From an uncultured Gammaproteobacteria bacterium (GTDB lineage Bacteria; Patescibacteriota; Patescibacteriia; UBA9934; GWF2-40-263), in the NCBI GenBank assembly GCA_964538435.1, contig CAZIDX010000003.1, positions 15,948-79,947 of the forward strand: a DNA stretch of 64,000 bases, written 5' to 3'. Below, in pieces: positions 7,301-59,462 of this stretch; the stretch's first letter is position 1; the number at the start of each line of letters is the position of its first letter. The notes beneath the pieces are model-generated. The model was not told the origin of the DNA, did not search any database, and saw only the letters and a program-made list of their open reading frames with translations. The position numbers and the translations under genes are program-made.

Positions 7301-10300
7301 TCATTTGCACCAACAGAATCCATTGGAAGCACAACCTCACTGTCACCCGACCCATCAGTCAAGAACGAAATCGCTGTCACTCCAGTTGTACCAACATTGA
7401 TTGAGGTTGCATTGCTTGTTCCAAGATTGAGCGCACCAGCACCAATGGTATCAAGACCTTGACCACCAGGGAGACTCAAGCTTCCAGCAGCAGTCAAAAG
7501 AACGTTTTGAGCAACCATGGAGATATTCTCCCCACTGTCCAATCCGTTCACACCAGCAATCAAGTTAAGAGCGGTTGTATCTCCTGACGTCACATTCAAA
7601 GCTGTTGTGCTGGTCAAATCTCCTCCACCAACATTTACATCACCAAGAACCTCAACATCTCCATCTTCATCAACAGCAAACAGTTCCACCCAGTTTCCAC
7701 TAGATGGTGTTGAGGCTCCCCTACCGATTTCAAACACTTGCTGGTTTGCAGCCATTCCTAAGTTTGTTGAATCTGCTCCATACACAAACATGGCCCGTCC
7801 AATGTTCGCTGACACGGTTCCAGCTGTTACGTTTGAGAGAAGCAAATCTGTTGCGTTATATCTTGTCAGGTAGTCAGAATCTGTTCCAAAAATGAGCGGA
7901 ATACCATCGTTAAGCTGAATGTTTCCAGATCCAAGCACGATTCCATTATCCCACCCTGTTCCAATATTAAGTGCTGTCTCAGTAATTCCTGCCTGCGCAG
8001 AACTCAAATTCCCAGCATTAAATCCATACAGAACGTCCGTGTCATTCGTTGCTGCGCTTGTTAGTGCAAGCTCAATTGCTGCAACACTGTTGTCGGTGTT
8101 GTCATCTCCAAGCGTGAAGTGGATATCAATCGCGTTATTTGCTCCTGGAGTACCACCATCAATATCGATAGTCTCTGTTAGATCAATGTCAATTCCTGCC
8201 GCATCAACAAGCATCTCACCAGCATCTGACTCAAGCCAAACCGTGGCGTTATTGCTTCCAACCTGGATAGTTCGTGCCCCGTCTGTTCCAATATTAATAC
8301 CCTGAGAAACATTATCATCTCCAATTCCAATTGTGCCAGCAGATGAATTAATCGAAAGCTTATCTACAGAATCGAGCTCTAGCGAATCTCCGGATGTAAG
8401 TAGAAGATCCCCTTCATTTCCAACTGTTCTAATCGTAAAGTCATCAACATCATCCGCAGCATTTGTAAGCTCAATCACGAGTGTCTGCGCGTTTGTTCCA
8501 TCATGCGCAGCAACGGAAATGTTATTTCCAAGAGCTGTATCACTCACAGTTGTCGCAACATCCAAACTAAAGATCCCGCCGTCTGCAATATCGATCGTTG
8601 TACTTCCAGTTGAATCAAGATCAATGGTTCCAGCAGAACTTCCTACCAAATTTCCACTCGTGGCTGTTGCGAGCGTCAGATTTCCACTCGTGGCTGTTAC
8701 ATTCGATGCTCCTGTTCCATCAATAGAGAATGTACTAGACGCAAGCATGTCATACGTTCCTGTAACATCGACATCTAAATTGGCGCCAGCGTTAATATCA
8801 ACAAGTCCAGCTGAGGTAACATCCGCCTCGGCCGCCGATGAAAGAAGGAGGTTTCCAGAAGTTGCAGTGGAAAGCGTCAAATCCCCGCTCGTTGCAGTCA
8901 CATTAGAAGTTCCTACACCATCAATACTGAACACTCCTGTTGACTGCATGTCATACAATCCAACCACATCAATATCCAAATTCGCTCCCGCGCTCATGTA
9001 TGTCATGTCAGCACTCATGAGATTCAAATCTCCAGATGTTGTCGTGCGAAGTGTAAGATTCCCGCTTGTGGCAGTAACATTTGAAGCTCCCACACCATCA
9101 ATACTAAAAATTCCTGTAGTATCAAGCGTAAATGTTCCACTATCAACATCAATTGCTGCGCCGGTGTTCACAACATCAATATCATTTGTTCCGTCACCTG
9201 TAAGATCTAGGTCTCCTCCATCAGAAGCAATAGCCACACCAGCACCTCCCATAGTCAAAGTCGCATCCGAGTCAATCGTTGCTGCACCAGTCGCATCTAC
9301 TCCATAAGTTGTTCCTGTTGTGATCGTAGCTGAAGTTGTTGTATCAAGTGTGTACGTTCCAGTGACATCCACATCCATGTTTGCTGCTCCGTTGATATCG
9401 AGAAGCCCTGCAGCTGTGATGTCTACCTCACCAGAAGTTGTTGTTGTAATTGTTAGGTCTGCACCAGCAACCGTGAAGTTTGAATTTGCTGCTGCGTCAA
9501 GTGAAATCGCTCCTGTTGAATCAACAAGTACACCGCCTGTACCTGCGTTCAAATCAAGAGTTGAGCTCGAAGTATTGTTTCCGATCGTAACGGATTTTGT
9601 TCCAGAACTGTTGTTTGCAAGATTGATGGAATCATTTCCTGTTCCAGTCGCCAGGTTAAGCGTGACTGCAACATCGTTATCCGCAATATTGATTGACTTG
9701 CTATCAGTTGAAGTTCGAAGGTAGATCTCACTCTGTGAGCTGGTCAAGTAAATATCTCCTGTGGAACCAGCTGCTGTAAGCGCGATATCACCATCTGATG
9801 TATCCATATTAATAGGTGAACCAGACCCAGATACGTCAATATCAACACCATGAGATGATGCTGATCCAACCAGGTTGATATCAAGTGTTCGCGCATCAAT
9901 CGTAACTGCACCACTCTCGTTCACACCAGACTCATACGCATCCAAATAAATTCCTGACCCACTTGTAGTGTCTGCATCAAGCATGACTGCATCACTCGCG
10001 GCCTCATCACCCTTTACAATCACTGACCCTGTATCTGCCAAAAGCGTAAGATCACCAGCCGTTGTCGTGAAGTTTGATGCCACATCAGACGAAAGCGAAA
10101 TCGCTCCGGTTCCAGTTGATGTGATTGCCTGCCCATCACTTAGCGTGAGCCAAGCAACCCCAGCATCTTGGAAGATCACATCACCTGTTCCCTGAGTATC
10201 AAAGATAAGATCTGGATTGTTTGTGGCAGAAAGCTCAAACTCAAACCCACCCGTCTGACCCTGCGCAGCGTCTACAGTAATTTTTGATGCTGTTGCACCA

Positions 10301-19145: not shown

Positions 19146-19208
19146 TCTATCAAAAAACACAACCCAAACAGGTTGTGTTTTGTATTAGAAAAGCCTAACC
19201 CCGAAAGA

Positions 19209-20516
19209 TTAGGCAGCGACCTTGAGCTCCCTGATGATGAGCTGCTCACGGTCAGGACCCACACCGATCATGGTGACAGGCACCCCTGTCATCTGTTCGA
19301 TTGTGCGGATGTAGAACTGAGCGTTCTGCGGGAGATCACCGAACGTGCGGCACCCCGTGATGTCCTCCTCCCAACCAGGAAGCTCCTGGTAGAGCGGCTC
19401 GCACGATTCCATCAGCTCGGTCGTGAGCGTGGCGTGATCACCAACCCTATCCATGTGGGCAAACCGCTGAAGATCCGAGCCAGCCATCTTGTAGCCCACG
19501 CAAACCTTCAGAGCCCCCAGGCCCGAGAGCACATCCAGCTTGGTGATGCACAACTCGCGAACCCCGCCCACACGCACACTGTAACGCAGCGCGAACAGAT
19601 CGAGCCACCCACAGTCACGCGGACGTCCTGTGGTCGAGCCGTACTCGTGACCACGATCACGCAGCTCCTGACCCACCTCATCGTCGAGCTTGGTCGGGAA
19701 CGGACCCGCACCCACTCGCGTAAGGTACGCCTTGGCCACAGCGATCACACGATCGAACTCGTAGACCCCCATGGACTGGGAAATACCACCCAGGGTCGTG
19801 GACGAAGACGTGCAGAACGGATTGGTTCCGTTCATCAAGTCGAGCAGGACACCTTGCGCACCCTCGAACAGAACATCCTTCCCCTCAGCCATGGAGCGCT
19901 GGAGGATCTCGCGTGTGTCCCCACGATGCATGTAGAGCACCTTGGCCCGCTTCATCACCCACGCCACCGTCTCATCGAGCGTCATGGGCACGATCTCAGA
20001 CCCGTCGAACTCCTTACACCGCGAGTTGTAGTACTCACCATGCTCGAGTGCGCGACGAATCGCAGCCTCGCTCTTGAGATCACGGATCTTCAGACCACGA
20101 CGCGCAACCATGTCCTCGTAGCACGGACCGATCCCACGATGAGTGGTCCCGATCTTATCCTTGCCCAACCGAGACTCACGCAGCTGGTCGATCTGCTTGT
20201 GAAGCGGAAGCACAACAGGGGCATTGAAATCGAGCACGACCTGAGCACCACGCTCAGTCGCAAGCACGAGTTCTTCGTAGACCACCTCCATGTCATGCGC
20301 CACGCCCGGCCCGGTCAGATTGAGAACACCCTTGCGGATGATCCCAGACGGAAGCACATGCAGAACGAACTTCGTATTGCCGACCCAGATGGTGTGGCCA
20401 GCATTGGCTCCACCATAGAATCGCACCACGATCTTGACGGCTCGAGCAAGCAGGTCAACGACCTTTCCCTTGCCCTCATCGCCCCATTGACCACCGAGCA
20501 CCACGTCACGAGACAC
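19209..20516 (-). CDS. purA: Adenylosuccinate synthetase. GC-rich codon usage unlike flanking genes.
   Basis: N-terminal GGQWGDEGKGKVVDLLA P-loop signature and GANAGHTI. Full length 435 aa. Plus-strand ORF 19173..20534 is its antisense shadow. Confidence 0.85.
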   Translation of the reverse strand: MSRDVVLGGQWGDEGKGKVVDLLARAVKIVVRFYGGANAGHTIWVGNTKFVLHVLPSGIIRKGVLNLTGPGVAHDMEVVYEELVLATERGAQVVLDFNAPVVLPLHKQIDQLRESRLGKDKIGTTHRGIGPCYEDMVARRGLKIRDLKSEAAIRRALEHGEYYNSRCKEFDGSEIVPMTLDETVAWVMKRAKVLYMHRGDTREILQRSMAEGKDVLFEGAQGVLLDLMNGTNPFCTSSSTTLGGISQSMGVYEFDRVIAVAKAYLTRVGAGPFPTKLDDEVGQELRDRGHEYGSTTGRPRDCGWLDLFALRYSVRVGGVRELCITKLDVLSGLGALKVCVGYKMAGSDLQRFAHMDRVGDHATLTTELMESCEPLYQELPGWEEDITGCRTFGDLPQNAQFYIRTIEQMTGVPVTMIGVGPDREQLIIRELKVAA

Positions 20517-20677
20517 AGATCACCTCCTTGGTGAAAGCTCCTTTCAGAAGAAGAGCCACGAAGACCTTACCAACCCTCTATTTTTTAAGCAAGATTAAAG
20601 GTCTAGATCTAAAAAACACCACATGTTATACTTAACCCACGAAAACTGCACCCATTTATTTCGGCCGTTTTCAAAGA

Positions 20678-23381: not shown

Positions 23382-23489
23382 AGCTTTTTTGGCTGAAACG
23401 CCTTACTTTTTTACGCTAAACTAACGGCAAATATTAGCATAAATTGGTCATTTTGTCAAGCAGACATAAGACTTTTTGCACTAAAATTA

Positions 23490-23865
23490 GCACAAAACGA
23501 AGACCCCCGCCGCAAGGCTAAGGGGTCCGTATCGTTGGCTTACAAGCCTATTACTTGATTCCCATTGGGTCGTTCTGTGTGGTTGGGTTCCTGATGAATC
23601 AGGCCTTAAGGCACGCCCGTTAGGACTGTTTTGGCTTGTTTTGTTCCGGAAAAACCTCCGGTTGGGGCTGTGCCGCCAGTAGCGACACGAGATCGGGCAG
23701 TGGCTCACTAATGGAAGAGCCGAATCGTCACTTGCACCTCCATGCCATCATTGGCGGGGCGACGAGAGGGAGAGAGATCGGGTTGACGGGCATCAGAGCC
23801 CTACACGCCTACCCTGGACGCCAATGGCTCGCAGCCGGGCGCTTCTGCAGGACAGGAGAAGTAGT
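23490..23865 (-). ncRNA. Candidate structured ncRNA of unknown family (GC-rich, ORF-poor, promoter + terminator)
   Basis: About 570-bp gene-free interval at about 58% GC. Minus-sense promoter GGTTGACAAAAGTGTCATTTTGTGCTAGACT at 23866-23895. Minus-sense terminator GACCCCttagccttgcggcGGGGGTCttcgttttgt at about 23490-23530. No match to RNase P, tmRNA or SRP conserved motifs found by eye. Confidence 0.3.
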
Positions 23866-23954
23866 CTAGCACAAAATGACACTTTTGTCAACCATGCCAG
23901 ACAGTAATCGAAAAGCCGCCAGCATCGTTGCTAGCGGCCGTATGGGACTTGGGT

Positions 23955-36658: not shown

Positions 36659-36748
36659 CGAGGTATTGTGAGAAAAATCACGAGGTGGTGGTCGTCTATC
36701 CTGCGAGACGGCCCGGCTCCGCCTCGTTATTTTTCTCACAATACCTCG
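36659..36748 (+). repeat. Hairpin-embedded conserved-core element, copy 1
   Basis: Core GAGGTGGTGGTCGTCTATCCTGCGAGACGGCCCGGCTCCGCC (36682-36723) flanked by 24-bp perfect inverted repeat cgaggtattgtgagaaaaatcac / tcgttatttttctcacaatacctcg. Confidence 0.8.
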
Positions 36749-36894: not shown

Positions 36895-39060
36895 TTACCG
36901 GGAGAAAACGAGTTTGAACTCGAAGTGTTCGTTTGTCGCGTCCTCAACGCATGCCTGCTGAATCATCAGGAAGCTTTCCTCCAGATCAGTCTGCCCAACA
37001 TGCCTAACAGCTCGCTGATAAGCCTGGTTGCAGGCATCGACGTCCACCCTCCGGATCGTATCCACCTTGACCGTGACGTCCTTCGTGGACCAAACCTCCT
37101 CAGGCGCAACTGGAGCCATGTTGAAGCTCCCAAGGTACCCATTCGTGCGACCGCAACTCTCGTCCGCGCACATCTGAAAACCGATCGCTGTCTGCTTGGG
37201 ATCATCCTCAACGAGCTCGATGGAAGGAGCACCCGCAGGCGATCCTGTCAGGCGATAGTCAGCAATGTGACCGTTGCTCACGATCCCATCTATGGGACGA
37301 CCCGTCCAGACGAACACACCAGGACGAGGAACATCGTTGATGATCAGTGCCGCGCGAACCGGAGAGCGGCGCTCATCCAGCTGGAGCAATGCTCGCAGTG
37401 TAACCTCTTGATCATGCCTGTTGACGGTCTTGTACTTGATCAGAAGCTCATCGCCCGCGAGTGTGATCCGCTCGTAGTCACTCAACTCGAGCACAACAAC
37501 CTCTTCCCGCGCGCTCTTGAGCGTAATTCGACCAGTTTCCCAGTCGATCTTGGCTATACTCGCCTCGTGATCATACGCCCAGGTGTCCACGCGCCTGTCA
37601 AAGATGTCGCTGGTGTAAACCTGATAGGTCACACCGCGAAACCCCTCATGCTCGACATCTTCGACCGCAGCCAAGTCATCCTTGGCATCGATCTTACCAT
37701 CGCAGTCGTTGTCCACGCCATCGACCCACTCCGGAGCCTGAGGATGCACAAAGGGGTTGTGATCATCGCAGTCACCATCAGCCCTACGAGCCCCGTCCTT
37801 GTCCAGGTCCTGATAGAGTGTGCCCTCATCCACGATTCCGTCGCAGTCGTTGTCGATTTCGTCGCCTCGGACTCCGCCTTCGGTGCTCACTCCCTCGCGC
37901 GCACCAGGATGGACGTGATCGTTTGTGTCGTCACAGTCGCCAGGAAGGAGGTCAGGTGTCCGGCACTTCTCTTCGTGCTCGCAGTAGCCGTCACCATCGT
38001 CGTCAGTTTCGACTCCGTTGTTGTCTGCAATCCCATCGCAGTCGTTATCCACGGTGAGGCGTTTGAAGAAATGAGCATTTTCGAAGGCAGTGATGAATTC
38101 TGACAGCGTAACATCCCCGACGGTGTAGTCGATGCCTTTTTCGATTTCAACTCGTATGACAACCACGTCTTCCTTGATACTCTCGGATTCGCACACTCCT
38201 TCTTCGTTGCAGAAGATGGGGTGGTGAATCTCGTTTGCACCCGGGTGCACGAACTTGTCTTCGTCATTGCAGTCGCCAGGCTTTGCATCTTCGTCCGTGC
38301 ACCGGTCCACAGCTGCGCAGTATCCATCGCCGTCGTTGTCGTGATGGATGGTGCCTTCGTCCGTGTATCGGTCACAGTCATTGTTGATGCCGTCGCCGTG
38401 CATGCCGTCCTTGTAGACCTCGCCTTCGGGCGCGTCAGGGTAGATGCCAGGGTTGGTGTCATCGCAATCGCCAGGCTTGATCTTCTCGCTCGAGCATCGA
38501 CGTTCGCAGTAGCCATCGCCATCATCATCAGACCGCTCTGTGTCTTCGTCGACTTTGCCATCGCAGTCGTTGTCGACACCAATTCCCATGTCCTTGTAAT
38601 CACGACGGAAGACCTCAGGAGCACCTGGGTAGACGTCCTTGTCCTCGTCATTGCAGTCGTTGGGCTCGGCATCATCGCGACACTGGACTTCGTACTCACA
38701 AAAGCCGTCACCGTCGTTGTCCACGTCGATGGCGCCTTCGTCAGTCACTCCGTCGCAGTCGTTGTCGACACCATCACCAAAGAATGGCGTGTGCTCGGTG
38801 GGTTCCTCGAGGGCGTTGGGGTGAACGAACTTGTCTTCGTCGTTGCAATCCCCGATCTTGAGATCCTCAGACTCACACGACTCCTCGTGTGAGCAGAACC
38901 CATCGCCGTCGCGGTCTACCTTGAGCAGAGCGATTTCTTCTGCGCTGCGGTCGTTGTCGACTCCTTTGGGGAAAAAAGTGCTTACAACCAATGCAAGCAG
39001 AGCACCGACCCCAATGATCGCAGCAATTCTGATTAGCCATTCTTGTGCAGATGGACTCAT
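36895..39060 (-). CDS. Secreted/membrane-anchored protein with many MopE-like putative metal-binding repeats (CxDxDxxVxPGAxExCDGxDNDCDG) and a C-terminal globular domain
   Basis: N-terminal anchor WLIRIAAIIGVGALLALVVSTFF. Ten or more repeats such as CNDEDKFVHPNALE...GVDNDCDGVTDEG and CDDTNPGIYPDAPEG...GINNDCDRYTDEG. GC-rich codons. Confidence 0.55.
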   Translation of the reverse strand: MSPSAQEWLIRIAAIIGVGALLALVVSTFFPKGVDNDRSAEEIALLKVDRDGDGFCSHEESCESEDLKIGDCNDEDKFVHPNALEEPTEHTPFFGDGVDNDCDGVTDEGAIDVDNDGDGFCEYEVQCRDDAEPNDCNDEDKDVYPGAPEVFRRDYKDMGIGVDNDCDGKVDEDTERSDDDGDGYCERRCSSEKIKPGDCDDTNPGIYPDAPEGEVYKDGMHGDGINNDCDRYTDEGTIHHDNDGDGYCAAVDRCTDEDAKPGDCNDEDKFVHPGANEIHHPIFCNEEGVCESESIKEDVVVIRVEIEKGIDYTVGDVTLSEFITAFENAHFFKRLTVDNDCDGIADNNGVETDDDGDGYCEHEEKCRTPDLLPGDCDDTNDHVHPGAREGVSTEGGVRGDEIDNDCDGIVDEGTLYQDLDKDGARRADGDCDDHNPFVHPQAPEWVDGVDNDCDGKIDAKDDLAAVEDVEHEGFRGVTYQVYTSDIFDRRVDTWAYDHEASIAKIDWETGRITLKSAREEVVVLELSDYERITLAGDELLIKYKTVNRHDQEVTLRALLQLDERRSPVRAALIINDVPRPGVFVWTGRPIDGIVSNGHIADYRLTGSPAGAPSIELVEDDPKQTAIGFQMCADESCGRTNGYLGSFNMAPVAPEEVWSTKDVTVKVDTIRRVDVDACNQAYQRAVRHVGQTDLEESFLMIQQACVEDATNEHFEFKLVFSR

Positions 39061-39164
39061 GTGAAAGAGCTCCTTGCTTTGGAGTTGAAGATTCGCAAGA
39101 CAAACGACTTTGTCACAAAATCCCCATTATGTCAATAGAAAACAAAGCTGTGACAACACCCTTC

Positions 39165-39272
39165 AACCAAACAAGAGCGAAGCTATGGTGCGATAAAGAA
39201 TTTTCGAGGTGGTGGTCATCTAGACAGCGCGATGGCCCGGCTCCGCCGAGAAAACTCTTTATTGCACCATGG
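39165..39272 (+). repeat. Hairpin-embedded conserved-core element, copy 2 (with 5' AAGAGCGAAGCT module)
   Basis: Core GAGGTGGTGGTCATCTAGACAGCGCGATGGCCCGGCTCCGCC (39206-39247). Flanks ctatggtgcgataaagaattttc / gagaaaactctttattgcaccatgg. Confidence 0.8.
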
Positions 39273-39301
39273 CGAGCGTATTAGAAAACACCCGCAGTTG
39301 C

Positions 39302-40981
39302 CTACGAGTGCTCGTTATCCTCCGAAGAAGCTCGCTCGAGCTCGGTCTTGTTCCATTCGGCCCGAGCTACCCAGACCCGACATTCCCACATGCGTTCGCA
39401 TTGGTTCAGTCGATGAAAGATGTTCTCAATGTCCACTGGCCCCTTCCCAGGAACCTTGACATCGATCATGTCGAGTTCGCATGAGATTCCCATCTCTGCC
39501 ATGGCACGCTCGAGCTCGACCTTGCGAACCCCCATCGCGATCATGCGTGCGGAAAGTTCCTCACACATGGCATCGAGCTCCTTGATCTTGTCCTGAGCCT
39601 GATCGAAGTAACGCTTAGCCATGAAGAACCAGTCACGCGCCTTTTCAGCTCGCTGCTTGGCCTCAAAATACCACAGCTGCTCATTCTGACGCTCCCCCTC
39701 ACGAAGAAGCTGCCGCGCGCGAGCGTAGAACTGCATTCCCAGTTCATGAAGCTGCCGCAGCTTTTGGTTAGCATGCCGCTTCTCTGCAGCATCCACGCAC
39801 CTCCGAGCAGCCACTGTGGCATCGAGAAGGACTGCGTACGCAGCACTTGCCTCCCGAAGCTTGTCAGCAGCATCTTGCTTGGCAGTCTCGAGCCCCTTGA
39901 CCTGCTTCCCAAGCCGCTCCACCAGAACCCGCAGATCCTGACAAGCCACCAAGACCTCAGGAAAAAGTGAAGCGCGCCCACCGATCATGTCGAGAACCTT
40001 GTCAGCCGCAGCCACAGCACGCTCCTGGGTCACACGTGGATCATGCATTGGATCCATCTTGATTCCCGCAGGAACTTCGATCGTGTCGTAGATCACATCT
40101 TCTTCTACGAGCTCTGCTGCGTGCAGAAGCTCGTCATAGCGCTCATTGTCGAGTCGCTCCACCTCAACGAGCTCTTCGAGTCGCTTCTCGAGCGCGATCG
40201 GATCCGTCGTGCGCAGCTCATCGAGCTCACGCCAAAACCGATCCTCGTTGGCATCCACACGCAGGAGCGGATGCGAGAACCACCTCAGTGAAATCCTCTT
40301 GCTCTGCGCATTATTGAACATCTCCATGGCCCACTGCCGTGAGTAGAGCTCGCGCACTGGTGTCTCAACCACACGAACAAGCTCTTGCACCCTCTTCCAC
40401 CGAGGACGCGCAAGGTTAAGCGCGTGCGAACTGCCAGAAACGAAAGTCTTTGGCCACACCGCAACACGAAATTCTTCCTTACTCATCAAAAGCTTCTTTG
40501 AACCAAGATGCTCGGTACCGAACACGAACTCCTCGTCCATCTTCCGAAAGGCACGCTGAAGCGAGCCTGGCTTCCACCATCGTGCTTGCTCTGCCAGGCC
40601 GCGACAATGCATGTGCAGCATCCGCATGCCTGCATTCGTGACAAGAACCCGATCGAGCACCTGAGCAGCCTGACGATATACCTCGCTGGTCTCCTTGCCT
40701 AGATCCGCAAGCAAATCTACACCTGCGCGTTCAGAGAACTCAGCCCTGTACACACTCGAAGCAAAGCGAACTTCGCTCTCACGCTTTTTCAGAAGACTCT
40801 CGAACTCTTGCTTGAGCTCAGAGAACCACTTGCGTCGCATGGAGATCAGCAATGCGCCAACCACTGCGAGCACAGAACCGATCATCATTGCAGCAACCCA
40901 GATCGCATCGATCTCGCCCGGATTGGTTGTTTGCGCCGCAGCAGGCGCGATTGCCATCATGGCAAGGATAAAGCTCGTCAT
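39302..40981 (-). CDS. Hypothetical membrane-anchored coiled-coil protein (559 aa)
   Basis: Signal/TM at the N-terminus (AIWVAAMMIGSVLAVVGALLISM), then long predicted alpha-helical coiled-coil region rich in E/R/L/A. EzrA-like architecture but no sequence-level assignment. Confidence 0.45.
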   Translation of the reverse strand: MTSFILAMMAIAPAAAQTTNPGEIDAIWVAAMMIGSVLAVVGALLISMRRKWFSELKQEFESLLKKRESEVRFASSVYRAEFSERAGVDLLADLGKETSEVYRQAAQVLDRVLVTNAGMRMLHMHCRGLAEQARWWKPGSLQRAFRKMDEEFVFGTEHLGSKKLLMSKEEFRVAVWPKTFVSGSSHALNLARPRWKRVQELVRVVETPVRELYSRQWAMEMFNNAQSKRISLRWFSHPLLRVDANEDRFWRELDELRTTDPIALEKRLEELVEVERLDNERYDELLHAAELVEEDVIYDTIEVPAGIKMDPMHDPRVTQERAVAAADKVLDMIGGRASLFPEVLVACQDLRVLVERLGKQVKGLETAKQDAADKLREASAAYAVLLDATVAARRCVDAAEKRHANQKLRQLHELGMQFYARARQLLREGERQNEQLWYFEAKQRAEKARDWFFMAKRYFDQAQDKIKELDAMCEELSARMIAMGVRKVELERAMAEMGISCELDMIDVKVPGKGPVDIENIFHRLNQCERMWECRVWVARAEWNKTELERASSEDNEHS

Positions 40982-41094
40982 GGCTTTCTCACTCGGTTGA
41001 AGAGAACATTTCCTTGAGCACCAAAGTACTCCGGACCAAAAACTTAGCGTTTTAAGCCCTTTTTGTCAATTGAAAAGACGCCCTCGAAAGGACG

Positions 41095-42285
41095 TCAGTA
41101 GCGCCAGGAAGACCGACGCTTGGGCTCGTGGTTGTGCTGGTTCATCACGATCCAGACCGACAGGATCAGGCACCCAAGAGCACTGAGTGCATACGTTAGA
41201 ATGGTGACCCACAGAGGCGGCGAGACCTTCACAAGCGAGAAATCCTCGAACTCCTTACGCTCCCAGTCCTGCTCAACCTGCGAGATCATGTAGTCGACGT
41301 GACGAACCAACTCCAGGCGACCGTACTCATGTGCGTCATCCTCGATATTCCTCTTGAGATCCTCACGCTCGGTCCAGGAAACCACCCGAGACCAAGTCAC
41401 GTTCCCCTGCGAATCGACCCCGATCAGAGAGATGAGTTCGTTCTTGTTCCCACCGCTCAGATACTGCTCTTGCCAGTACCCAGCCTCCTCTGGCTGATTC
41501 CGAAACACCATCACGAACATCCGAACCTGGTGCTTGCGCCCAAGCTTGGCATTCGCCTCACTGAGCTTGAACTCAGCCATGTCCGCATCTGAGCCACTGA
41601 CTCCAAGCACTGACCTCTGCTTGTAGTTCTCGAGAATGGGCGGATAGTCGTAGAGACTGTACCGAGCCTTGACCTCGTCTGTGACCTCTTCCCACTTGAT
41701 CAGATCGTTCTTGCCTTGCACACGATTCTCGTACGCATGCTTGGTGGTGACCGGGACGAATGTCTCGGGATTCTTGTCCCACTGCACATAGTACCGATCA
41801 CCGTCGATCGTATGGAAGTCACGATCCAAATCGATGAACATGGGCTCCCCCCAGAGCTTCACCAACTCATCGAACTGCGCCTTGCTGATCGTGGTCTCGA
41901 TGCCATTGGAATCCGTGACAACCGAATGGACGGGGATATGCTTCACGTCGTACGGATGCTCATCGCCGATGTATTGCTGCGTTGTGCAGCTGTACGTTGA
42001 CCCATCCGCGTTGGTGCATGTCGACGCAACTGTGATGTACTCGGGGTGTTGGCACGGAACACGCTTGTTCCAGGCCTGGTTGTGGGCGCCAGAGACACCC
42101 CAACCGCCCCAGAACTCCCAATCCTGCACACTGACACGCTCAGACGTAAACTTGCCCAGCAGAATGATCGCGAGCACCGGAATGAACGGAAGCAAATACT
42201 CCCAGAACACGGTCCGACGCTGGTACTTGAGATACAGAATGAACGCGCAGGCGATCGGAACCGCAAGAGCTCCCCAAATCTCCAT
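41095..42285 (-). CDS. Hypothetical membrane protein (two N-terminal TM helices, large extracytoplasmic domain, C-terminal TM)
   Basis: 396 aa. Promoter TCTTGACAAAATGAG (minus sense) at about 42351-42360. Confidence 0.45.
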   Translation of the reverse strand: MEIWGALAVPIACAFILYLKYQRRTVFWEYLLPFIPVLAIILLGKFTSERVSVQDWEFWGGWGVSGAHNQAWNKRVPCQHPEYITVASTCTNADGSTYSCTTQQYIGDEHPYDVKHIPVHSVVTDSNGIETTISKAQFDELVKLWGEPMFIDLDRDFHTIDGDRYYVQWDKNPETFVPVTTKHAYENRVQGKNDLIKWEEVTDEVKARYSLYDYPPILENYKQRSVLGVSGSDADMAEFKLSEANAKLGRKHQVRMFVMVFRNQPEEAGYWQEQYLSGGNKNELISLIGVDSQGNVTWSRVVSWTEREDLKRNIEDDAHEYGRLELVRHVDYMISQVEQDWERKEFEDFSLVKVSPPLWVTILTYALSALGCLILSVWIVMNQHNHEPKRRSSWRY

Positions 42286-44354: not shown

Positions 44355-44665
44355 CCCCTTCACACAAACAAGAGCGCAGCTGTGGTGTAAATAATTGACA
44401 CAAGGTGGTGGTGCCCCCTGCGATATCGGGCGCCCGGCTCCGCCCGCAGTTGCCCCTACCCCAACCAAGAGCGAAGCTGTGATGCTGAAATAAGTTTCTG
44501 AGGTGGTGGTCGTCTATACTGTGAGACGGCCCGGCTCCGCCCGCAAAAGCACCTTCACACAAACAAGAGCGCAGCTGTGGTGTAAATAATTGACACAAGG
44601 TGGTGGTGCCCCCTGCGATATCGGGCGCCCGGCTCCGCCTTGTGTCAATTATTTACACCACAGCA
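44355..44665 (+). repeat. Cluster of three hairpin-embedded core elements (copies 3-5). Copies 3 and 5 are an about 80-bp direct duplication. Only copy 5 keeps both IR arms.
   Basis: Cores at 44402-44444 (AAGGTGGTGGTGCCCCCTGCGATATCGGGCGCCCGGCTCCGCC), 44500-44541 (GAGGTGGTGGTCGTCTATACTGTGAGACGGCCCGGCTCCGCC) and 44598-44639. Copy-5 flanks gtggtgtaaataattgacacaa / ttgtgtcaattatttacaccac. Confidence 0.8.
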
Positions 44666-45825: not shown

Positions 45826-45919
45826 TCTGTTTATGTGAATACTTTGTGAGGTGGTGGTGCCCCCTGCGATATTGGGCGCCCGGCTCCGACGAATATAGTA
45901 TTTACATAAACAGATTACG
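45822..45919 (+). repeat. Hairpin-embedded conserved-core element, copy 6. Left arm overlaps the GT4 stop codon.
   Basis: Core GAGGTGGTGGTGCCCCCTGCGATATTGGGCGCCCGGCTCCGAC (45848-45890). Flanks gtaatctgtttatgtgaatactttgtg / cgaatatagtatttacataaacagattac. Confidence 0.8.
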
Positions 45920-51102: not shown

Positions 51103-52944
51103 ATGAATAAAAAAACAACATCAAAAAAACGGAGGAACAAGCGTGAGATCAAAAAAGAACTTAGGTCCATCTACGTTGGCGCTGATGGAAAAATGCCAGA
51201 CCTAAGCACCCTCACGCGAGATACTTCAGGATTGACTCGAACACTTCTTAAAGTCGTTGTTTTTTTGTTTGCCATCTCAGCGCTCGCCTGGGCAGGATTC
51301 TTTTTATTCACAAACGGATTATTCCAAGACAACGAATCTCTCACCCTCACGATTGACGGTCCTCAAACAGCTGTATCTGGAGAAGAAGTAAGCTACACCA
51401 TCCGCTACGAAAACACAGGCAATGTCCCAGTCGCAGCCCTAAGCGCAAAGCTCAACTTCCCATCCACCTTCCACATCTACTCAACTATCCCAGAAACAAC
51501 ATCTGGCGAAGACGAGTGGACAATTGGATCCGTCACACCTGGTTCAGACGGAGCAATCACAGTAAACGGCGTCTTCCTCTCAGAAGTTCCAAGCTCCCAG
51601 CGCATTCAAGCACTGTTCAACTACAAACCAGCAAACTTTTCATCTGAATTTCAAGACCTGGTATCACAAAAAGTCGACATTGATGACTCAGTGGTTGCCC
51701 TGTCACTCTCTGGCCCAGAAAAAGCGTTGGCTGGAGACGAGGCAGAGTACATTATTAATTTGCAAAACATGAGCACTGACCCGGTTTACAACCTGCGCGT
51801 CACACCTGCTCTACCAATTGATTTTTCACTCACCACAACAGATCCAGAAATCCTAGAAGGAGAATCCTACTGGACAGTAGACGTTCTTGAACCAGGCGAA
51901 CTCAAAGCGCTCAACATGAACGGCACCTACACCTCCACAGCATCTGGTGAGCAAACCGTTTCAGCATCCGTTGGCTTTGTTGATGAAAGTCTGGTACTCA
52001 CACAAAGCTCAGAGAATGTTCTCACAGACATCCTCGGCGGTAGTGTAGGTTTTAGCCTGATTGTAAACGGATCAGCCTCAGACCAAACCGCAGAGGTCGG
52101 ACAAATCCTCCGCCTCTCAATTGACTACGAAAACAACTCAGACCAAAGCATAAAAGACCTAAGCTTTGAACTTTCCATCACAGGTGACGGCGACCTCCCA
52201 ATCGACTGGGAGAACGCAAGCATGAGCGATGGTCTGCTCTCAGGCAGCACCCTCACTTACAACTCAACAACCCACGAAGAACTTGCAGAACTCGCACCAA
52301 CAGACGAAGGTGTCATCGATTTAAGTCTGCCAGTTTTTGACTCACTTACAGAAAACGCAACTGATTCATTCACCATCAATCTAAAAGCTGTACTCTCTGA
52401 AGTCGCAGGTATCTCAAGCGTTCGAGAGATTGATGTCACACCAATTGTCGTAAGTCTCAACTCAGACACAAGTGTTGGCGCACATGCCCGCTACTTCTCA
52501 ACCGGAGGAACCTCAATTGGAACAGGCCCTCTCCCCCCAGTCGTTGGAGAAACAACAAGCTTCCGTGTGTATTGGAACATCAACAATGCTCTGCACGCAC
52601 TCGACGATATCGAACTCATGACAACACTCCCACAAGATGTGACCTGGCTTGAAAATGCAGACAAAGACATCGGAGACATCACCTACGATGCAACAACAAG
52701 ACAGGTGACCTGGACCGTATCAAAACTTCCTACCGATGTTGAAAGTGCTGGAGCCTGGTATGAAATCGCCGTAAACCCTGCCGAGCACGATGTGGGAACA
52801 TTCATGAAGCTAACAAACACCACAAGCTTCACAGCAACAGACACAGTCACAAACACAGAACTCTCAGACACCCTCGACATCCTCACAACAGAGCTCTCTA
52901 ACGATGACTTCGCCGCCGGTCTAGGGGTCGTGATGGAGGAATGA
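51103..52944 (+). CDS. Membrane-anchored surface protein with repeated DUF11/CARDB-like beta-sandwich domains
   Basis: N-terminal TM (LKVVVFLFAISALAWAGFFLF). Repeats of the LTIDGPQTAVSGEEVSYTIRYENTGNVPV type. 613 aa. Confidence 0.5.
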   Translation: MNKKTTSKKRRNKREIKKELRSIYVGADGKMPDLSTLTRDTSGLTRTLLKVVVFLFAISALAWAGFFLFTNGLFQDNESLTLTIDGPQTAVSGEEVSYTIRYENTGNVPVAALSAKLNFPSTFHIYSTIPETTSGEDEWTIGSVTPGSDGAITVNGVFLSEVPSSQRIQALFNYKPANFSSEFQDLVSQKVDIDDSVVALSLSGPEKALAGDEAEYIINLQNMSTDPVYNLRVTPALPIDFSLTTTDPEILEGESYWTVDVLEPGELKALNMNGTYTSTASGEQTVSASVGFVDESLVLTQSSENVLTDILGGSVGFSLIVNGSASDQTAEVGQILRLSIDYENNSDQSIKDLSFELSITGDGDLPIDWENASMSDGLLSGSTLTYNSTTHEELAELAPTDEGVIDLSLPVFDSLTENATDSFTINLKAVLSEVAGISSVREIDVTPIVVSLNSDTSVGAHARYFSTGGTSIGTGPLPPVVGETTSFRVYWNINNALHALDDIELMTTLPQDVTWLENADKDIGDITYDATTRQVTWTVSKLPTDVESAGAWYEIAVNPAEHDVGTFMKLTNTTSFTATDTVTNTELSDTLDILTTELSNDDFAAGLGVVMEE

Positions 52945-52947
52945 TGT

Positions 52948-53796
52948 ATGAACGACTCAAAAATGGAACAATTTTACGAAGAGTTTGCAGAAGAACACAC
53001 AGACGAAGAACTTTATTGGAAAGAAAACCCTCAACCTGGAGGTTACCTCATGCCCCTTAGGGCAAAAACATTGTTAAAAAAAATCGAAGCCTCTATTCAG
53101 TCCCCTAATGACTCCATTGTTGATTTTGGATGTGGGGACGGTATCTTGTTAAAAAAAATCACAAAACCCTGCAAAAAGTTTGGTGTTGATATTTGTGACA
53201 CACATATCCAAAGAGCACAAAACAATATCCCAAATGGAACGTTCAAAAAAATCGCTCCTGAATCACAAACGCCGTTTAAAACAAACTTGTTTGATGTTAC
53301 AGTTTCATCAGAGGTGATCGAACATGTAAAAAATCCAAAACAATTTATTCAAGAACTTGTTCGAATCACGAAACCAGGAGGAACAATCATTGTCACAACC
53401 CCTTCAAAATTTGGCTTCCGTCCAGGCTCACTTACCTGGAAATGGAACATCATGGTGTGTGTTAATCGATTCTTTGACTGGGTTCCTTACAAACTTAAAA
53501 CACTGATTAAAGGAAAAAGTATTTCAGAAGGAGTAGCAAAGGAATTTACAAACCATCACCACCTGCACATTTTTAGCGCAAGAAACCTTCGTAACTTTTT
53601 TCCAAAAAAAACTGTGACAAAAAGCCAGCTTTCAACATGCGGACTATACCTACCACCAATGAAAATCTGGAGTAGGCTAACCTATCATATTCCTTTGATA
53701 AAGAAACTGTACACATTGATGGATATCATGATCGGAAAAATCCCCTTCCTCAAACAGATCAATTGCACTCTCATACTGGTAGTAAAGAAAAAATAG
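52948..53796 (+). CDS. Class I SAM-dependent methyltransferase. Low-GC gene.
   Basis: VDFGCGDGILLKKI (motif I) and IVTTP (motif post-II). About 35% GC, unlike its neighbours. Confidence 0.65.
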   Translation: MNDSKMEQFYEEFAEEHTDEELYWKENPQPGGYLMPLRAKTLLKKIEASIQSPNDSIVDFGCGDGILLKKITKPCKKFGVDICDTHIQRAQNNIPNGTFKKIAPESQTPFKTNLFDVTVSSEVIEHVKNPKQFIQELVRITKPGGTIIVTTPSKFGFRPGSLTWKWNIMVCVNRFFDWVPYKLKTLIKGKSISEGVAKEFTNHHHLHIFSARNLRNFFPKKTVTKSQLSTCGLYLPPMKIWSRLTYHIPLIKKLYTLMDIMIGKIPFLKQINCTLILVVKKK

Positions 53797-53801
53797 AAAC
53801 G

Positions 53802-53834
53802 AAAAAACCACTGATCAATATGATCGGTGGTTTT
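53802..53834. terminator. Bidirectional intrinsic terminator
   Basis: aaaaaaCCACTGATCAatatGATCGGTGGtttt. Confidence 0.6.
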
Positions 53835-54610
53835 AAAAAGCAAGAGTCCCCACCCGACCGAAGTCAGATGGGGACCGTTCTCGCAACCTGTCTCCTGCCC
53901 CTACATGACTTGCAGGGCTTCAGCCGGCGGCGATCACGTCGCACACATCGGCGGCCCGAGGTGGGGCCAGAAGTATCAGATGTTGAGGGATGGGGGCTCG
54001 TACTCTTGTCCCCCTCAAAACGCAGCTGATTTTGGGCGCGCTCAGCCGAGCGCACAGCGTTCGAAGAACCAACATGGCTTTGGCATCGGACCTCGCAGGC
54101 GTCGTTGGGGGAGCGGGGCGGAGGAAGGGCACGGTCACCTTCCCCTCACCCCTGGTTGGAGGGACAGTCCATTTCGCAGCGCAGCAGCGCTCCCGGCCTC
54201 CCATGATCACACACCAGGAAGAAGCAGAAGGCGGGCCAGCGCTGAAGAGCTCGGTCGGCGGCGAAGCGTAGCAGGCAGGCCAAGGTCGGCCTCCTCTCGC
54301 TCCGGCGCGGGGCACGGCAACCAGTCGGAATCCCTTTCGGGCCACAACAGTTGGCGTGAGTAGCACATGCAGCTCTCGCAGCCAGACGGCAACATCGCCG
54401 ACGGCCACGCTCAGCAGCCTGCATGCACCCAGATCTCGGCGCGGCTTAGGACTGTTTTGCTGGGTCTCCGTGACTCCCAGCTGACATGAACGCAAGGCAT
54501 CTCGACGGCGACCAGGGAGGCCGCATCAGCGCCGAACCATGCGTCTTGCACCCAACCGTGTGGCCCATGGCAATGCCAAAAGGCGAAGCAGAGGTTGACG
54601 AGCAAGGATG
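53835..54610 (-). ncRNA. Candidate large GC-rich noncoding transcript or structured RNA (about 780 nt, about 63% GC), unknown family
   Basis: No credible ORF: track ORFs here are Arg/Pro/Ala-rich GC artefacts on both strands. Minus-sense promoter GGGTTGACAAAAACAC at about 54641-54650. Terminator at 53802-53834. Shares the 14-mer TTAGGACTGTTTTG with the 23.5-kb candidate ncRNA. Confidence 0.25.
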
Positions 54611-54702
54611 CAAGGTATCACATTTGGGTGTTTTTGTCAACCCACTCACCTCAAAAACACCTATTTTCGACAAAAAAACGACATTTTACCAACCCTTACT
54701 GA

Positions 54703-54803
54703 GCGAAGCTGTGGTATTGCATGAGAATATGTGAGGTGGTGGTCGTCTATCCTTCGAGACGGCCCGGCTCCGCCGAACATATTCTCATGCAATACCATAG
54801 CGA
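54703..54803 (+). repeat. Hairpin-embedded conserved-core element, copy 7 (with 5' GAGCGAAGCT and 3' GCGAGCGTATTAGAAAA modules)
   Basis: Core GAGGTGGTGGTCGTCTATCCTTCGAGACGGCCCGGCTCCGCC (54733-54774). Flanks gctgtggtattgcatgagaatatgt / gaacatattctcatgcaataccatagc. Confidence 0.8.
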
Positions 54804-54846
54804 GCGTATTAGAAAATCCCGAACATCTGTTCGGGACTCGTACCTT

Positions 54847-55317
54847 CTAAGCGTTGATGTCTGTCTGCATCCGAGGCCGCTTGAGAAAACCCTTCAACCT
54901 CTCGAAACCCTCCTTGGTGCTCACAGCGATCTTGATCGCATCACCAGCCGGAGTCAGCTCATCGATCAGAACCTGCTCACCACCTGGCACCACGACCAGC
55001 AGCTTGGAGCTGTCGACACGCTCGAGCATGTCAGCGACCACACGGACCATCTGGGCATCCGTCACCAGCACCATGAGCACGTCAGCAACCCCCAGCGCCA
55101 GATCCGGCAGCAGCACCAGCTCATCCGGGATCACCGGGGTGATGACATGGTTGGGGGTCGTGAGTTCGAACCGCTTGGCCGACAGAACCACCTCGGCCTG
55201 CCACCCCTGACTCACGATCGCGAGAACATGACGCGCACCACACACATCGAGCATGTAGTGATCGGGATACTCGTTGCTGCAACCAGGGAAACCACAGCAC
55301 TGCATTCGCATCGACAT
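54847..55317 (-). CDS. Hypothetical protein (GC-rich class)
   Basis: 156 aa, no recognisable motif. Promoter GGTTGACAATTGAT (minus sense) at about 55371-55380. Confidence 0.4.
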   Translation of the reverse strand: MSMRMQCCGFPGCSNEYPDHYMLDVCGARHVLAIVSQGWQAEVVLSAKRFELTTPNHVITPVIPDELVLLPDLALGVADVLMVLVTDAQMVRVVADMLERVDSSKLLVVVPGGEQVLIDELTPAGDAIKIAVSTKEGFERLKGFLKRPRMQTDINA

Positions 55318-55412
55318 GAGAACCTCCTTTCTCGTCTCGTGAAGAAATACACCCTACCCAAAAAAGCATCAATTGTCAACCCAAACCAAAAACCACCGAA
55401 AGTCTCGATGGT

Positions 55413-56336
55413 TTAAACGGATCGCCTAACTTTTCTCGCCAGCTCATACAATCGATATCGAAGCGGCTTCAAAATCACATCAAATGTCCCCGCGCTCTCC
55501 ACATCCTCCCCACCAAACCCTCGCTTAAATCTACTTATTCCTTCCCAGGGATGATTCTCTGCGTTTGCTGGCGCAACCCCCCACCAATCGTACCACTGAA
55601 AACCTTTCTCCCTGGCGTCTTGTATAAGCCTCCAGTGCAACAGACTCGGAGCCATCAATTTTCGATATTCATGATCGCTTGCTCCATGTACATACGTACG
55701 CGTATCCCCAAAGTCATTCATAACCGTAGCAGCAACAGCCCTACCCTGAACAAACGCAGCTGCCAAAAACATCTTGCAGTCGCCATCTTTCAAAGAAGAC
55801 AACTGCTTCTCATAATACTTTTTCGAGTGAAGTTTAAACCCACCCCGAGCTCCAGTTTTCTCAAAAAGCCCCCACACATCATCAAGCTCAACCCCCTCAA
55901 TCCTAACCTCCACCTCCTTGCGCTCAGCAAGACGAATGTTATAACGCGTCTTATGATGCATTCCGGAAAGCAAATCTTCCTCACTCTTTGAAAGATCCAA
56001 AATACTTGTCACAGCTGGCTGAAGCTCAATGCTCTTCTTTGCCTCCACCTCAAGCTCTTCAGGCTCAATCCGAGCAAACATTGCCTCTCCACCAATCTCC
56101 CCCATCTTCCCAATCGGCCCTTTTGGTGCTGACCAATACTCACCAAACATCGGCACCTGCTTTCTAATCCAAAGCGTTTGCCCAATCACCTTACCCTCAT
56201 GTTCTACTCGCTGCCTCTCAATCTTCTCACCAAGAACCTTCTGGAACCCCCCCCACTCCCAAGATTGTAAAAACCGACCCGATCGCGGGCCGTTTTCCAA
56301 AACAAAACTATTCCAATCTTTTCTGTTCATAATCAT
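55413..56336 (-). CDS. FemAB-family peptidoglycan interpeptide-bridge aminoacyltransferase
   Basis: 307 aa. Pattern ...FLQSWEWGGFQKVLGEK... and GxxVAATV... typical of the FemX/FemAB fold. Overlaps the ruvA stop by 4 bp. Confidence 0.65.
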   Translation of the reverse strand: MIMNRKDWNSFVLENGPRSGRFLQSWEWGGFQKVLGEKIERQRVEHEGKVIGQTLWIRKQVPMFGEYWSAPKGPIGKMGEIGGEAMFARIEPEELEVEAKKSIELQPAVTSILDLSKSEEDLLSGMHHKTRYNIRLAERKEVEVRIEGVELDDVWGLFEKTGARGGFKLHSKKYYEKQLSSLKDGDCKMFLAAAFVQGRAVAATVMNDFGDTRTYVHGASDHEYRKLMAPSLLHWRLIQDAREKGFQWYDWWGVAPANAENHPWEGISRFKRGFGGEDVESAGTFDVILKPLRYRLYELARKVRRSV

Positions 56337-59364: not shown

Positions 59365-59462
59365 ACAAATGAGATTTCTAGATTACGTAGCGAGGTGGTG
59401 GTCATCTATACGGCGAGATGGCCCGGCTCCGCCGAGCGAAGTAATCTATAAATCTCATTTGT
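59365..59462 (+). repeat. Hairpin-embedded conserved-core element, copy 8
   Basis: Core GAGGTGGTGGTCATCTATACGGCGAGATGGCCCGGCTCCGCC (59392-59433). 27-bp flanks acaaatgagatttctagattacgtagc / gagcgaagtaatctataaatctcatttgt. Confidence 0.8.

Follow-up and report, generated by a model that had tools for sequence, protein, structure and literature searches.

A GC-rich, partly structured candidate RNA gene with a putative micro-open reading frame at a variable gene junction in an Uhrbacteria-like bacterium

The DNA analysed here is a stretch of 64,000 nucleotides (nt) from an uncultured bacterium, referred to below as the window, and its minus strand between positions 53835 and 54640 is, as read from its sequence, an independently transcribed RNA gene. 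DNA of this organism is contained in sequencing run SRR8146443. The source genome contains about 47% guanine plus cytosine (GC), and the proteins of the window are closest to those of Candidatus Uhrbacteria (Patescibacteria) genome bins, the FemAB-like gene product sharing 50–56% identity with Uhrbacteria bin proteins. In these bins the FemAB-like gene and a gene for a DUF11/CLIPPER repeat protein converge on a variable gap, and this order is conserved; in the window the repeat surface protein, of 613 amino acids (aa), is specified by positions 51103–52944. The GC content reaches its window maximum, 0.63–0.66, over 53850–54600, most of the window being at 0.42–0.50, and the body of the RNA, with 63.5%, lies 16 points over the genome. 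Non-coding RNAs of more than about 500 nt are rare in bacteria, and spare DNA is scarce in the small genomes of the Patescibacteria (candidate phyla radiation). We found no paper on non-coding RNAs of Uhrbacteria in the literature searched.

A close relative, locus L082 (contig FLOH01000056.1), came to light when metagenomes were scanned with aligned sequences of the 613-aa protein; an earlier metagenome scan, with the methyltransferase adjacent to the RNA, recovered none. The 613-aa protein is 90% identical in L082; in the DNA of the flanking genes identity is 79–84%, and at four-fold degenerate sites it is 0.47–0.69, mostly 0.50–0.55. An earlier note on this DNA, made from the sequence alone, had proposed an alignment against relatives; in L082 the RNA region has a homolog at the orthologous site (window 53828–54668 against L082 7886–8671; expectation value (E) 3e-72). 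The alignment is a mosaic of six blocks, comprising 224 columns, which are 0.81–0.89 identical and hence above the neutral 0.50–0.55, while identity outside the blocks is 0.55. Identity is 81–96% over the promoter, the terminator and approximately 220–350 nt of block sequence, with 46 of 48 positions matching in one stretch. A third genome (JGI sample 3300072015), in which the 613-aa protein is 82% identical, has an 858-nt gap between the convergent genes, at 9062–9920 of a 13,664-bp contig; judged from gene calls, of which there are none in this gap, it is of the right size for the RNA unit without the 156-aa gene described below.

Transcription would start from a promoter at 54612–54640 (minus strand), consisting of a -35 box TTGACA (54640–54635), a 17-nt spacer ending in TGA and a -10 box TACCTT (54617–54612). 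Its sequence, TTGACAAAAACACCCAAATGTGATACCTT (54640–54612), is that of a strong sigma-70-type promoter: it matches TTGACA-N17-TAnnnT and has a TG ahead of the -10 box, as in extended -10 promoters. Scanning the window for TTGACA-N15-19-TAnnnT returned 12 sites where 2.5 are expected, and the RNase P RNA gene has one of these immediately in front of it; since the pattern is enriched and also precedes RNase P RNA, it is a promoter type that is native to the host and known here to drive a stable RNA. In L082 the -35 box is kept, as are the spacing and A/T-rich sequence upstream (TTGACAAAAACGTCCAGATCTGTTATTTT), and the minus-strand TTGACA promoter called in the earlier note is thus upheld. With a transcription start inferred near 54605, the RNA body would extend over 53836–54605 of the minus strand, about 770 nt of non-coding sequence (L082 homolog 7888–8609).

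At its 3' end a terminator scan located an intrinsic terminator (53835–53876, minus strand), a 14-bp hairpin (53876–53845) with a UUCG loop followed by CUUGCUUUUU, the tail reading CTTGCTTTTT. L082 retains this hairpin, two of its pairs having changed in a compensatory manner (U-A to C-G and A-U to G-C). A second, bidirectional hairpin, AAAAAACCACTGATCA-ATAT-GATCGGTGGTTTT, flanked by A and T runs, was read from the sequence at 53802–53834, directly after the methyltransferase stop codon; it would serve the convergent methyltransferase gene and back up the RNA terminator. An equivalent arrangement of A-run, hairpin and T-run lies 3' of the RNA in L082 and in three further loci (L002, L003 and L004). 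The earlier note had assigned termination to the 53802–53834 hairpin: this hairpin is present and the RNA does end before the convergent gene, but the RNA's own and better terminator had been overlooked, as had the conserved reading frame described below. By sequence the unit therefore possesses its own promoter and its own terminator, both of which are conserved in a relative.

No protein appears to be specified by the GC-rich stretch as a whole. Its longest open reading frame (ORF; 191 aa, minus strand) has GC contents of 0.67, 0.62 and 0.65 at the three codon positions (GC1, GC2 and GC3) and is thus flat, while every credible gene of the window has a GC2 of about 0.32–0.49. The six-frame translation, with frames joined and stops masked, gave no match at E<=10 among approximately 5.8 billion proteins, in a search whose word prefilter could let very remote relatives escape, and the two longest ORFs had no match in Pfam. 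Between window and L082 the synonymous fraction of differing codons is 0.09–0.16 in all six frames, compared with 0.48 (156-aa gene, see below) and 0.66 (FemAB) for controls in their true frame; differing codons have mean BLOSUM scores of -0.6 to +0.1 across the six frames, which equals the off-frames of the controls, and the lengths of the indels are not multiples of three. A 94-codon frame beginning with an AUG near 54199, in which net indels are multiples of three, was considered and rejected, having no Shine-Dalgarno (SD) sequence, no synonymous excess and a composition unlike that of proteins. Since the blocks are conserved above neutral sites with no synonymous excess, selection appears to be purifying but not to act on a protein. 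By these sequence measures the stretch is neither protein-coding nor the remnant of a gene, and its description in the earlier note as a GC-rich non-coding stretch (highest GC of the window, flat codon positions, no protein match, no coding substitution pattern) is confirmed.

It is very improbable that we are dealing with decayed foreign DNA, i.e. a pseudogene or mobile-element remnant at a hotspot, flanked by chance with promoter- and terminator-like sequences. The excess of 16 GC points over the genome would fit such an origin, as would a variable junction beside a low-GC inserted methyltransferase gene and a repeat copy; yet analogous RNAs elsewhere are likewise GC-elevated, six-frame comparison disclosed neither protein similarity nor a coding signature, and blocks, promoter and terminator alike are much better conserved than neutral sites. 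Nor does the RNA body have the properties of a mobile element, a miniature inverted-repeat transposable element (MITE) or an insertion sequence remnant, being single-copy in the window and located at an orthologous site in L082. Phage and plasmid collections contained no DNA similar to the RNA region (blastn), and its best-conserved 38-mer was absent from the viral contigs scanned. The suggestion in the earlier note of a decayed, horizontally acquired gene can accordingly be dropped: no six-frame match at E<=10, no codon periodicity and no synonymous excess were found, and the blocks exceed neutral conservation.

RNAalifold analysis of the window/L082 pair returned 162 base pairs, 27 of them changed on both sides; because its pairs are compatible by construction, the result was calibrated against shuffles in which alignment columns were permuted with gap and conservation classes kept, though not dinucleotide content. 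The consensus-fold z scores were -6.8 (80 shuffles) and -9.0 (40 shuffles) for the sense strand and -4.7 for the antisense; four coding-region controls, taken from this pair of genomes, scored +0.5 to -2.2. Hairpins H13 (54308–54258), H16 (54152–54115), H21 (54055–54036) and the terminator H28 are predicted from each sequence alone, and in these five of five changed pairs are still paired.

Several local elements contribute to this picture, all on the minus strand. Hairpin H7 (54459–54481; block identity 0.81) has a GCUGGG/CCCAGC stem with a conserved GUCACGG loop and shows, in a well-aligned block, two compensatory changes between window and L082 (U-A to C-G and G-C to A-U); a conserved segment, AAACAGUCC, follows at 54461–54435. 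Long hairpin H13 (54258–54308; blocks 0.83–0.85 identical) comprises 20 pairs in which an SD-like AGAGGAGGCC is paired with GGCCUGCCU. Of these, 18 are invariant, two show one-sided G-U/A-U changes and none is disrupted; its loop differs in length between the genomes. A 61-nt block that is 0.89 identical falls in a domain (54164–54244) containing H14/H15, whose pairs are invariant or compatibly changed on one side, together with the 3' strands of the long-range helices H8 and H9. H8 would join CAGUCC (54454–54449) to GGACUG (54170–54165); the long-range helices are invariant in both sequences and thus predicted only. Hairpin H21 (54036–54055), with eight invariant base pairs (GUGCGCUC-GGCU-GAGCGCGC), is situated in the best-conserved block (54075–54023, 0.89 identical over 53 nt). 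Finally, helix H25 (53892–53973) pairs CUUCUG.CCCC (53973–53963) with GGGG.CAGGAG (53901–53892) and closes a variable insert, its ten invariant pairs surrounding a diverged, indel-bearing region. In the comparison of these two sequences structure is supported locally and statistically, and no overall architecture is established.

H21 also holds the stop codon of a small reading frame. This micro-ORF (54042–54094, minus strand) consists of an SD sequence GAGG (54094–54091), an AUG at 54086 after a spacing of four bases, 14 codons (MPKPCWFFERCALG) and UGA (54044–54042); the predicted peptide is formyl-Met-PKPCWFFERCALG. L082 has GGAGG, the same four-base spacing and a GUG in the aligned column, and its frame reads VPYHSWFFERCALG; length and stop are likewise conserved. 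The N-terminal codons differ (KPC in the window, YHS in L082), and the conserved part contains a single substitution, GAA to GAG, a synonymous change. The consensus fold pairs the SD with the UUCUUC codons. With SD and start in a weak hairpin and the stop in the invariant 8-bp hairpin, translation would remodel the conserved core.

A purely non-coding structured RNA would need no translation at all: the 14-codon frame would be incidental, hairpins H19–H21 would explain the block, and the molecule would act through its fold, as a scaffold, protein partner or base-pairing regulator. We regard this as possible, although doubtful. The invariant hairpin and helix H6 fall on the conserved part of the micro-ORF, the N-terminal divergence and an SD of only GAGG are as expected for an incidental frame, and most conserved blocks lie outside it; but SD, start column (AUG/GUG) and frame have been kept where the neighbouring sequence has diverged, and SD-led micro-ORFs in analogous RNAs elsewhere are confined to the sense strand and 19-fold enriched.

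These analogous units occupy the same gap in L002, L003, L004 (three in tandem), L087 and L129. They are gene-free, lie 7–17 GC points above their own genomes and end in C-run/G-run terminator hairpins; TTGACA promoters start them wherever the 5' side is on the contig, that of L129 ending before the promoter. L082, L002, L003, L004 and L087 display a common layout of TTGACA promoter, C-run/G-run terminator and convergence on the DUF11/CLIPPER gene, and the window conforms to it with a methyltransferase gene inserted between the RNA and the DUF11/CLIPPER gene. Searches of Rfam with the analogous units gave no match. Their sense strands carry 14 strong-SD micro-ORFs in 6.7 kilobases (kb), or 2.08 per kb, and their antisense strands none, against a background of 0.108 per kb in all 1.87 megabases (Mb) of fetched DNA, which is the source of the 19-fold figure.

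Among the encoded peptides are MYPSGFI, VYTSGFV, MTHPSGFT, VSVLYTSGFV, MVAKFPSGFV, VYPSHFG, MRRHPSHFG, MLPSHFL and VTYKYPSEFF. In a motif-free test 17 cross-genome pairs shared at least three of their last five residues, while random sets drawn from background micro-ORFs gave 0.63 ± 0.81 (maximum 5 in 2000 draws). Serine is specified by both AGY and UCN codons, which indicates selection on the peptide, and UAG is the stop codon in 11 of the 14 frames, as opposed to 25% of long genes. Micro-ORFs of 7–10 codons ending in [YFH][PT]S[GHE]F-x were located at L003 12968–13373, L087 7963–8326, L129 7276–7398, L090 9825–9857 (MVAKFPSGFV, some 2 kb from the L090 DUF11 gene) and L004 11206–11229. They usually have UAG in or beside a hairpin, number at most three per RNA, and resemble one another as peptides and not as nucleotides.

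The tandem units of L004 (10387–12010; Candidatus Uhrbacteria bin SI072_bin28) are non-coding, each with its own terminator and each starting with a near-identical promoter, GGGTTGACAAAACC.TCAAAATG.GGTAG. Units B and C have a 3' domain in common (E 1e-16; alignment-fold z -8.7 sense and -5.4 antisense) and carry the micro-ORFs MYPSGFI and MLLLWW.

Conservation of the micro-ORF, the cross-genome similarity of the peptides and the switching between serine codon families could also mean that the RNA serves chiefly as the messenger of a very small peptide, or of several, its GC-rich flanks being stabilising or regulatory untranslated regions. We consider this improbable, since blocks of some 200 nt in total that lie outside the micro-ORF are equally conserved, the window peptide is devoid of YPSxF, and the L002 and L003 peptides are not conserved between the two.

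We lean, if only modestly, towards a partly structured, dual-function, ribosome-engaging RNA gene of an Uhrbacteria-like bacterium, as proposed from comparison of the sequences. The RNA would be abundant, and its conserved core would be remodelled by, or would report on, a translating ribosome: on traversing the micro-ORF the ribosome would open or remodel the core, the outcome being either a tiny peptide or a conformation or activity of the RNA that is coupled to ribosome traffic.

Besides the limits of the fold statistics given above, a number of observations weigh against this proposal. The micro-ORF of the window deviates from those of the group in its weaker SD (GAGG), its 14 codons, its UGA stop and the sequence KPCWF in place of YPSxF; it thus lacks the combination of a 6-mer SD, 6–11 codons, [YH][PT]S[GHEW]F-x and UAG that marks the group. 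A conserved hairpin overlaps the C-terminal half of this frame, the half that is conserved, and could on its own account for the conservation, and the micro-ORFs of the L002/L003 pair keep their position and length and not their peptide. Only about one third to one half of the 770 nt is constrained, the remainder drifting neutrally with indels, and a single large ornate fold is therefore not established. The whole-molecule minimum free energy fold of either sequence is preserved in its partner no better than in slid controls, and covariation, coming from two sequences only, is thin. Searches with nhmmer and a covariance model found the RNA core in the window and L082 and in no other locus, and comparison of the window RNA with the L002/L003, L004, L087 and L129 units by blastn, nhmmer, MAFFT, shared k-mers and the core covariance model R1 revealed no homology. 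The analogous units are, for the most part, unalignable with one another as well, and the L082 frame is intermediate in character (GGAGGC, VPYHSWFFERCALG, YHSWF).

The window RNA is probably a diverged member of the group of GC-rich, SD-led micro-ORF RNAs in this gap; as a deviant member its inclusion is plausible and unproven. A wider proposal, which we put forward tentatively, is that the group constitutes an undescribed class of Uhrbacteria RNAs, strongly transcribed, GC-rich, structured and 400–800 nt in length, with one to three strong-SD micro-ORFs of 6–14 codons, of YPSxF type and usually with UAG in or beside a hairpin, the window RNA being a diverged member. The functional output would be translation of the micro-ORF or the formyl-heptapeptide itself; it might amount to a ribosome- or release-factor-sensing RNA switch, or to a signalling peptide which an episymbiotic bacterium translates directly.

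A conserved, strongly promoted RNA of 770 nt in a small genome implies a function worth its cost. Heptapeptide micro-ORFs in RNAs that cannot be aligned would, if real, point either to a novel coupling of RNA structure with translation or to a novel kind of mini-peptide that is translated directly. The combination of a YPSxF micro-ORF and a strong SD would also provide a testable handle for finding more such RNAs in metagenomes.

Adjacent to the RNA is an orphan gene for a 156-aa protein (window 54847–55317 and L082 8766–9236, minus strand), with 60% GC, a strong SD, and a TTGACA promoter and a terminator of its own. The gene is a real one: the protein is 67% identical to its L082 homolog and the gene shows codon periodicity. 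No relative was found in the set of 5.8 billion proteins, and PADLOC and PHROGs were empty. Exhaustive HMMER searching yielded five distant relatives, whose contigs are too short to hold such an RNA as well; the five have an N-terminal C-x-[FW]-P-x-C-x-N-[EQ]-[FY]-P-[DE]-H-Y-x3-C-G-[AE]-R-H in common, and a nucleoside 2-deoxyribosyltransferase-like Pfam domain is present in one. The single-sequence AlphaFold model of the 156-aa protein was unusable, with a predicted local distance difference test (pLDDT) score of 36.

Since this gene lies beside the RNA and in the same orientation, in L082 as in the window, at a junction varying from 242 nt to 6 kb with differing cargo, the two might form a module, for instance a defence or toxin-antitoxin-like pair in a hotspot. 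This is unlikely, even with the deoxyribosyltransferase-like domain of the distant relative as a pointer in that direction: each gene has a separate promoter and terminator, the 858-nt gap of the 82%-related JGI contig contains no called 156-aa gene, and neither a defence-system (PADLOC) nor a phage-protein (PHROGs) match, RNA repeats or a reverse transcriptase was found.

On its other side the RNA is separated from the DUF11 gene by a plus-strand gene (52948–53796) for a class I S-adenosylmethionine methyltransferase (282 aa, 37% GC). Both this gene and a hairpin repeat at 54700–54816 are missing from the L082 site, which indicates that they are insertions in the window lineage; the methyltransferase gene is, from this comparison, taken as a recent one between the DUF11 gene and the RNA. 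Its weak PADLOC match to mad2 (E 9e-10) probably reflects the generic methyltransferase fold only.

The gap between the FemAB and DUF11 genes is evidently a variable hotspot, with cargo that differs from genome to genome (L001–L013, L082–L129). In L006 and L013 it is empty (242–381 nt). L001 has a 1056-aa ORF and a 624-aa gene there, L002/L003 have fructose-bisphosphatase-like genes and genes for lipoproteins, and L090/L091 have tRNA genes. An 80-nt repeat common to L091, L090, L089 and L112 was considered as an RNA of the same kind and rejected, the repeat being tRNA genes. L005, whose genome has 41% GC, contains at 5594–6070 (plus strand) an island of 70% GC that encodes a 158-aa protein with a hydrophobic N-terminal segment; the third codon position is strongly GC-skewed, and this looks like a recently acquired high-GC gene. 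As the island is protein-coding, GC islands at the junction are not always RNA. Elsewhere in the window, at 36895–42285 and 19173–20534, several long genes have 56–59% GC with a GC3 of 0.62–0.73, against about 0.40–0.50 for the remainder, which may be due to the codon bias of highly expressed genes or to foreign origin.

The hairpin repeat is an element separate from the RNA gene. It occurs in six copies, all on the plus strand (54700–54816, 36682–36721, 39206–39245, 44500–44539, 45848–45888 and 59392–59431), with an invariant 40-nt core, GAGGTGGTGGTCGTCTAT..GCGAGACGGCCCGGCTCCG. The inner stem covaries between copies (GTCGTCT/AGACGGC versus GTCATCT/AGATGGC), and the outer arms are copy-specific and self-complementary. 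It was found neither at the orthologous site of L082 nor in any of the 132 fetched loci. A contig of this organism in the Logan collection is broken within the repeat, and Rfam gives weak microRNA (miRNA)-like hairpin matches only. It is either a MITE-like or repetitive extragenic palindromic (REP)-like element or a small structured RNA family.

A second candidate, at 23486–23891 (minus strand), has a promoter TTGACAAAAGTGTCATTTTGTGCTAGACT (23891–23863), a hairpin near 23500–23530 and about 370 nt of 57% GC. GGAGGU is followed by a seven-codon frame, VTIRLFH, with a UAG stop; the single-sequence fold z is only -0.8, and Rfam gave no match. Promoter type, terminator and an SD-led tiny ORF are common to this candidate and the RNA gene. 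The earlier note had also linked the two through a shared 14-mer. There are indeed two exact sites, against 0.04 expected, but homology is not supported (local alignment score 29.5 versus 25.5 ± 3.3 for shuffles, maximum 37.5). The segment following H7 is part of this 14-mer, within which only AAACAGTCC is conserved in L082.

Comparison with known systems began with Rfam. Version 15 identified RNase P and two tRNAs only in the whole window, and a permissive scan (E<=10) of 53000–55800 added nothing but weak miRNA-like hairpin matches, all of them outside the RNA body; the L082 homolog belongs to no Rfam family even at E<=10. The RNA matches none of the models for OLE, GOLLD, ROOL, HEARO, raiA, group I/II introns, tmRNA, 6S, SRP or RNAIII, so that the family scan with large-RNA models suggested in the earlier note placed it in no family. 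This appears to be a genuine RNA gene, narrowly distributed and not classified before. The large structured RNA envisaged in that note survives in part: the consensus-fold z scores argue for a structured RNA gene, but about one third to one half of it is constrained and none of the named large-RNA models fits. With OLE, GOLLD, ROOL, HEARO and raiA it has in common an unusual length, a GC content high for its genome, conserved blocks alternating with variable regions, and discovery by intergenic GC; it differs from them in the extent of its constrained part, in being found in two genomes only and in its lack of a covariation-supported architecture.

As a long non-coding RNA with several SD-like GGA motifs it also recalls the CsrB/RsmZ sponges. 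A CsrB/Rsm-type sponge was rejected, GGA occurring 12 times against 12.4 expected (8 against 10.6 in L082) and the four conserved GGA being in predicted stems and not in loops. Leader-peptide attenuators and minigenes, such as the trpL/pheL-type, erm and cat leader peptides and the bar minigenes of phage lambda, resemble it in having an SD-led frame of few codons whose end overlaps a hairpin, so that a ribosome would remodel the RNA. In contrast to leaders, the micro-ORF of the window lies about 500 nt into the RNA, and the relatives have several frames per RNA. A leader-peptide attenuator was rejected, there being no co-oriented downstream gene: in the window the next gene is convergent and lies behind two terminators, and in L082, too, it is the 3' end of a convergent gene that comes next.

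Dual-function RNAs include RNAIII of Staphylococcus aureus (514 nt, encoding delta-haemolysin), SgrS/SgrT and SR1/SR1P. The window RNA has no sequence or covariance-model similarity to RNAIII, SgrS or SR1, and its frame, like those of the related units (14 and 6–11 codons, respectively), is far shorter; unlike RNAs of the RNAIII type, it comes from an uncultured Patescibacterium and is known from sequence alone. Peptide coding by bacterial small RNAs is the subject of a survey (PMC5521070). By analogy, dual-function RNAs such as RNAIII would nevertheless be its closest known counterparts, for they too have their own promoter and intrinsic terminator, a length of several hundred nucleotides, many hairpins, a short SD-led frame and a distribution restricted to a narrow lineage.

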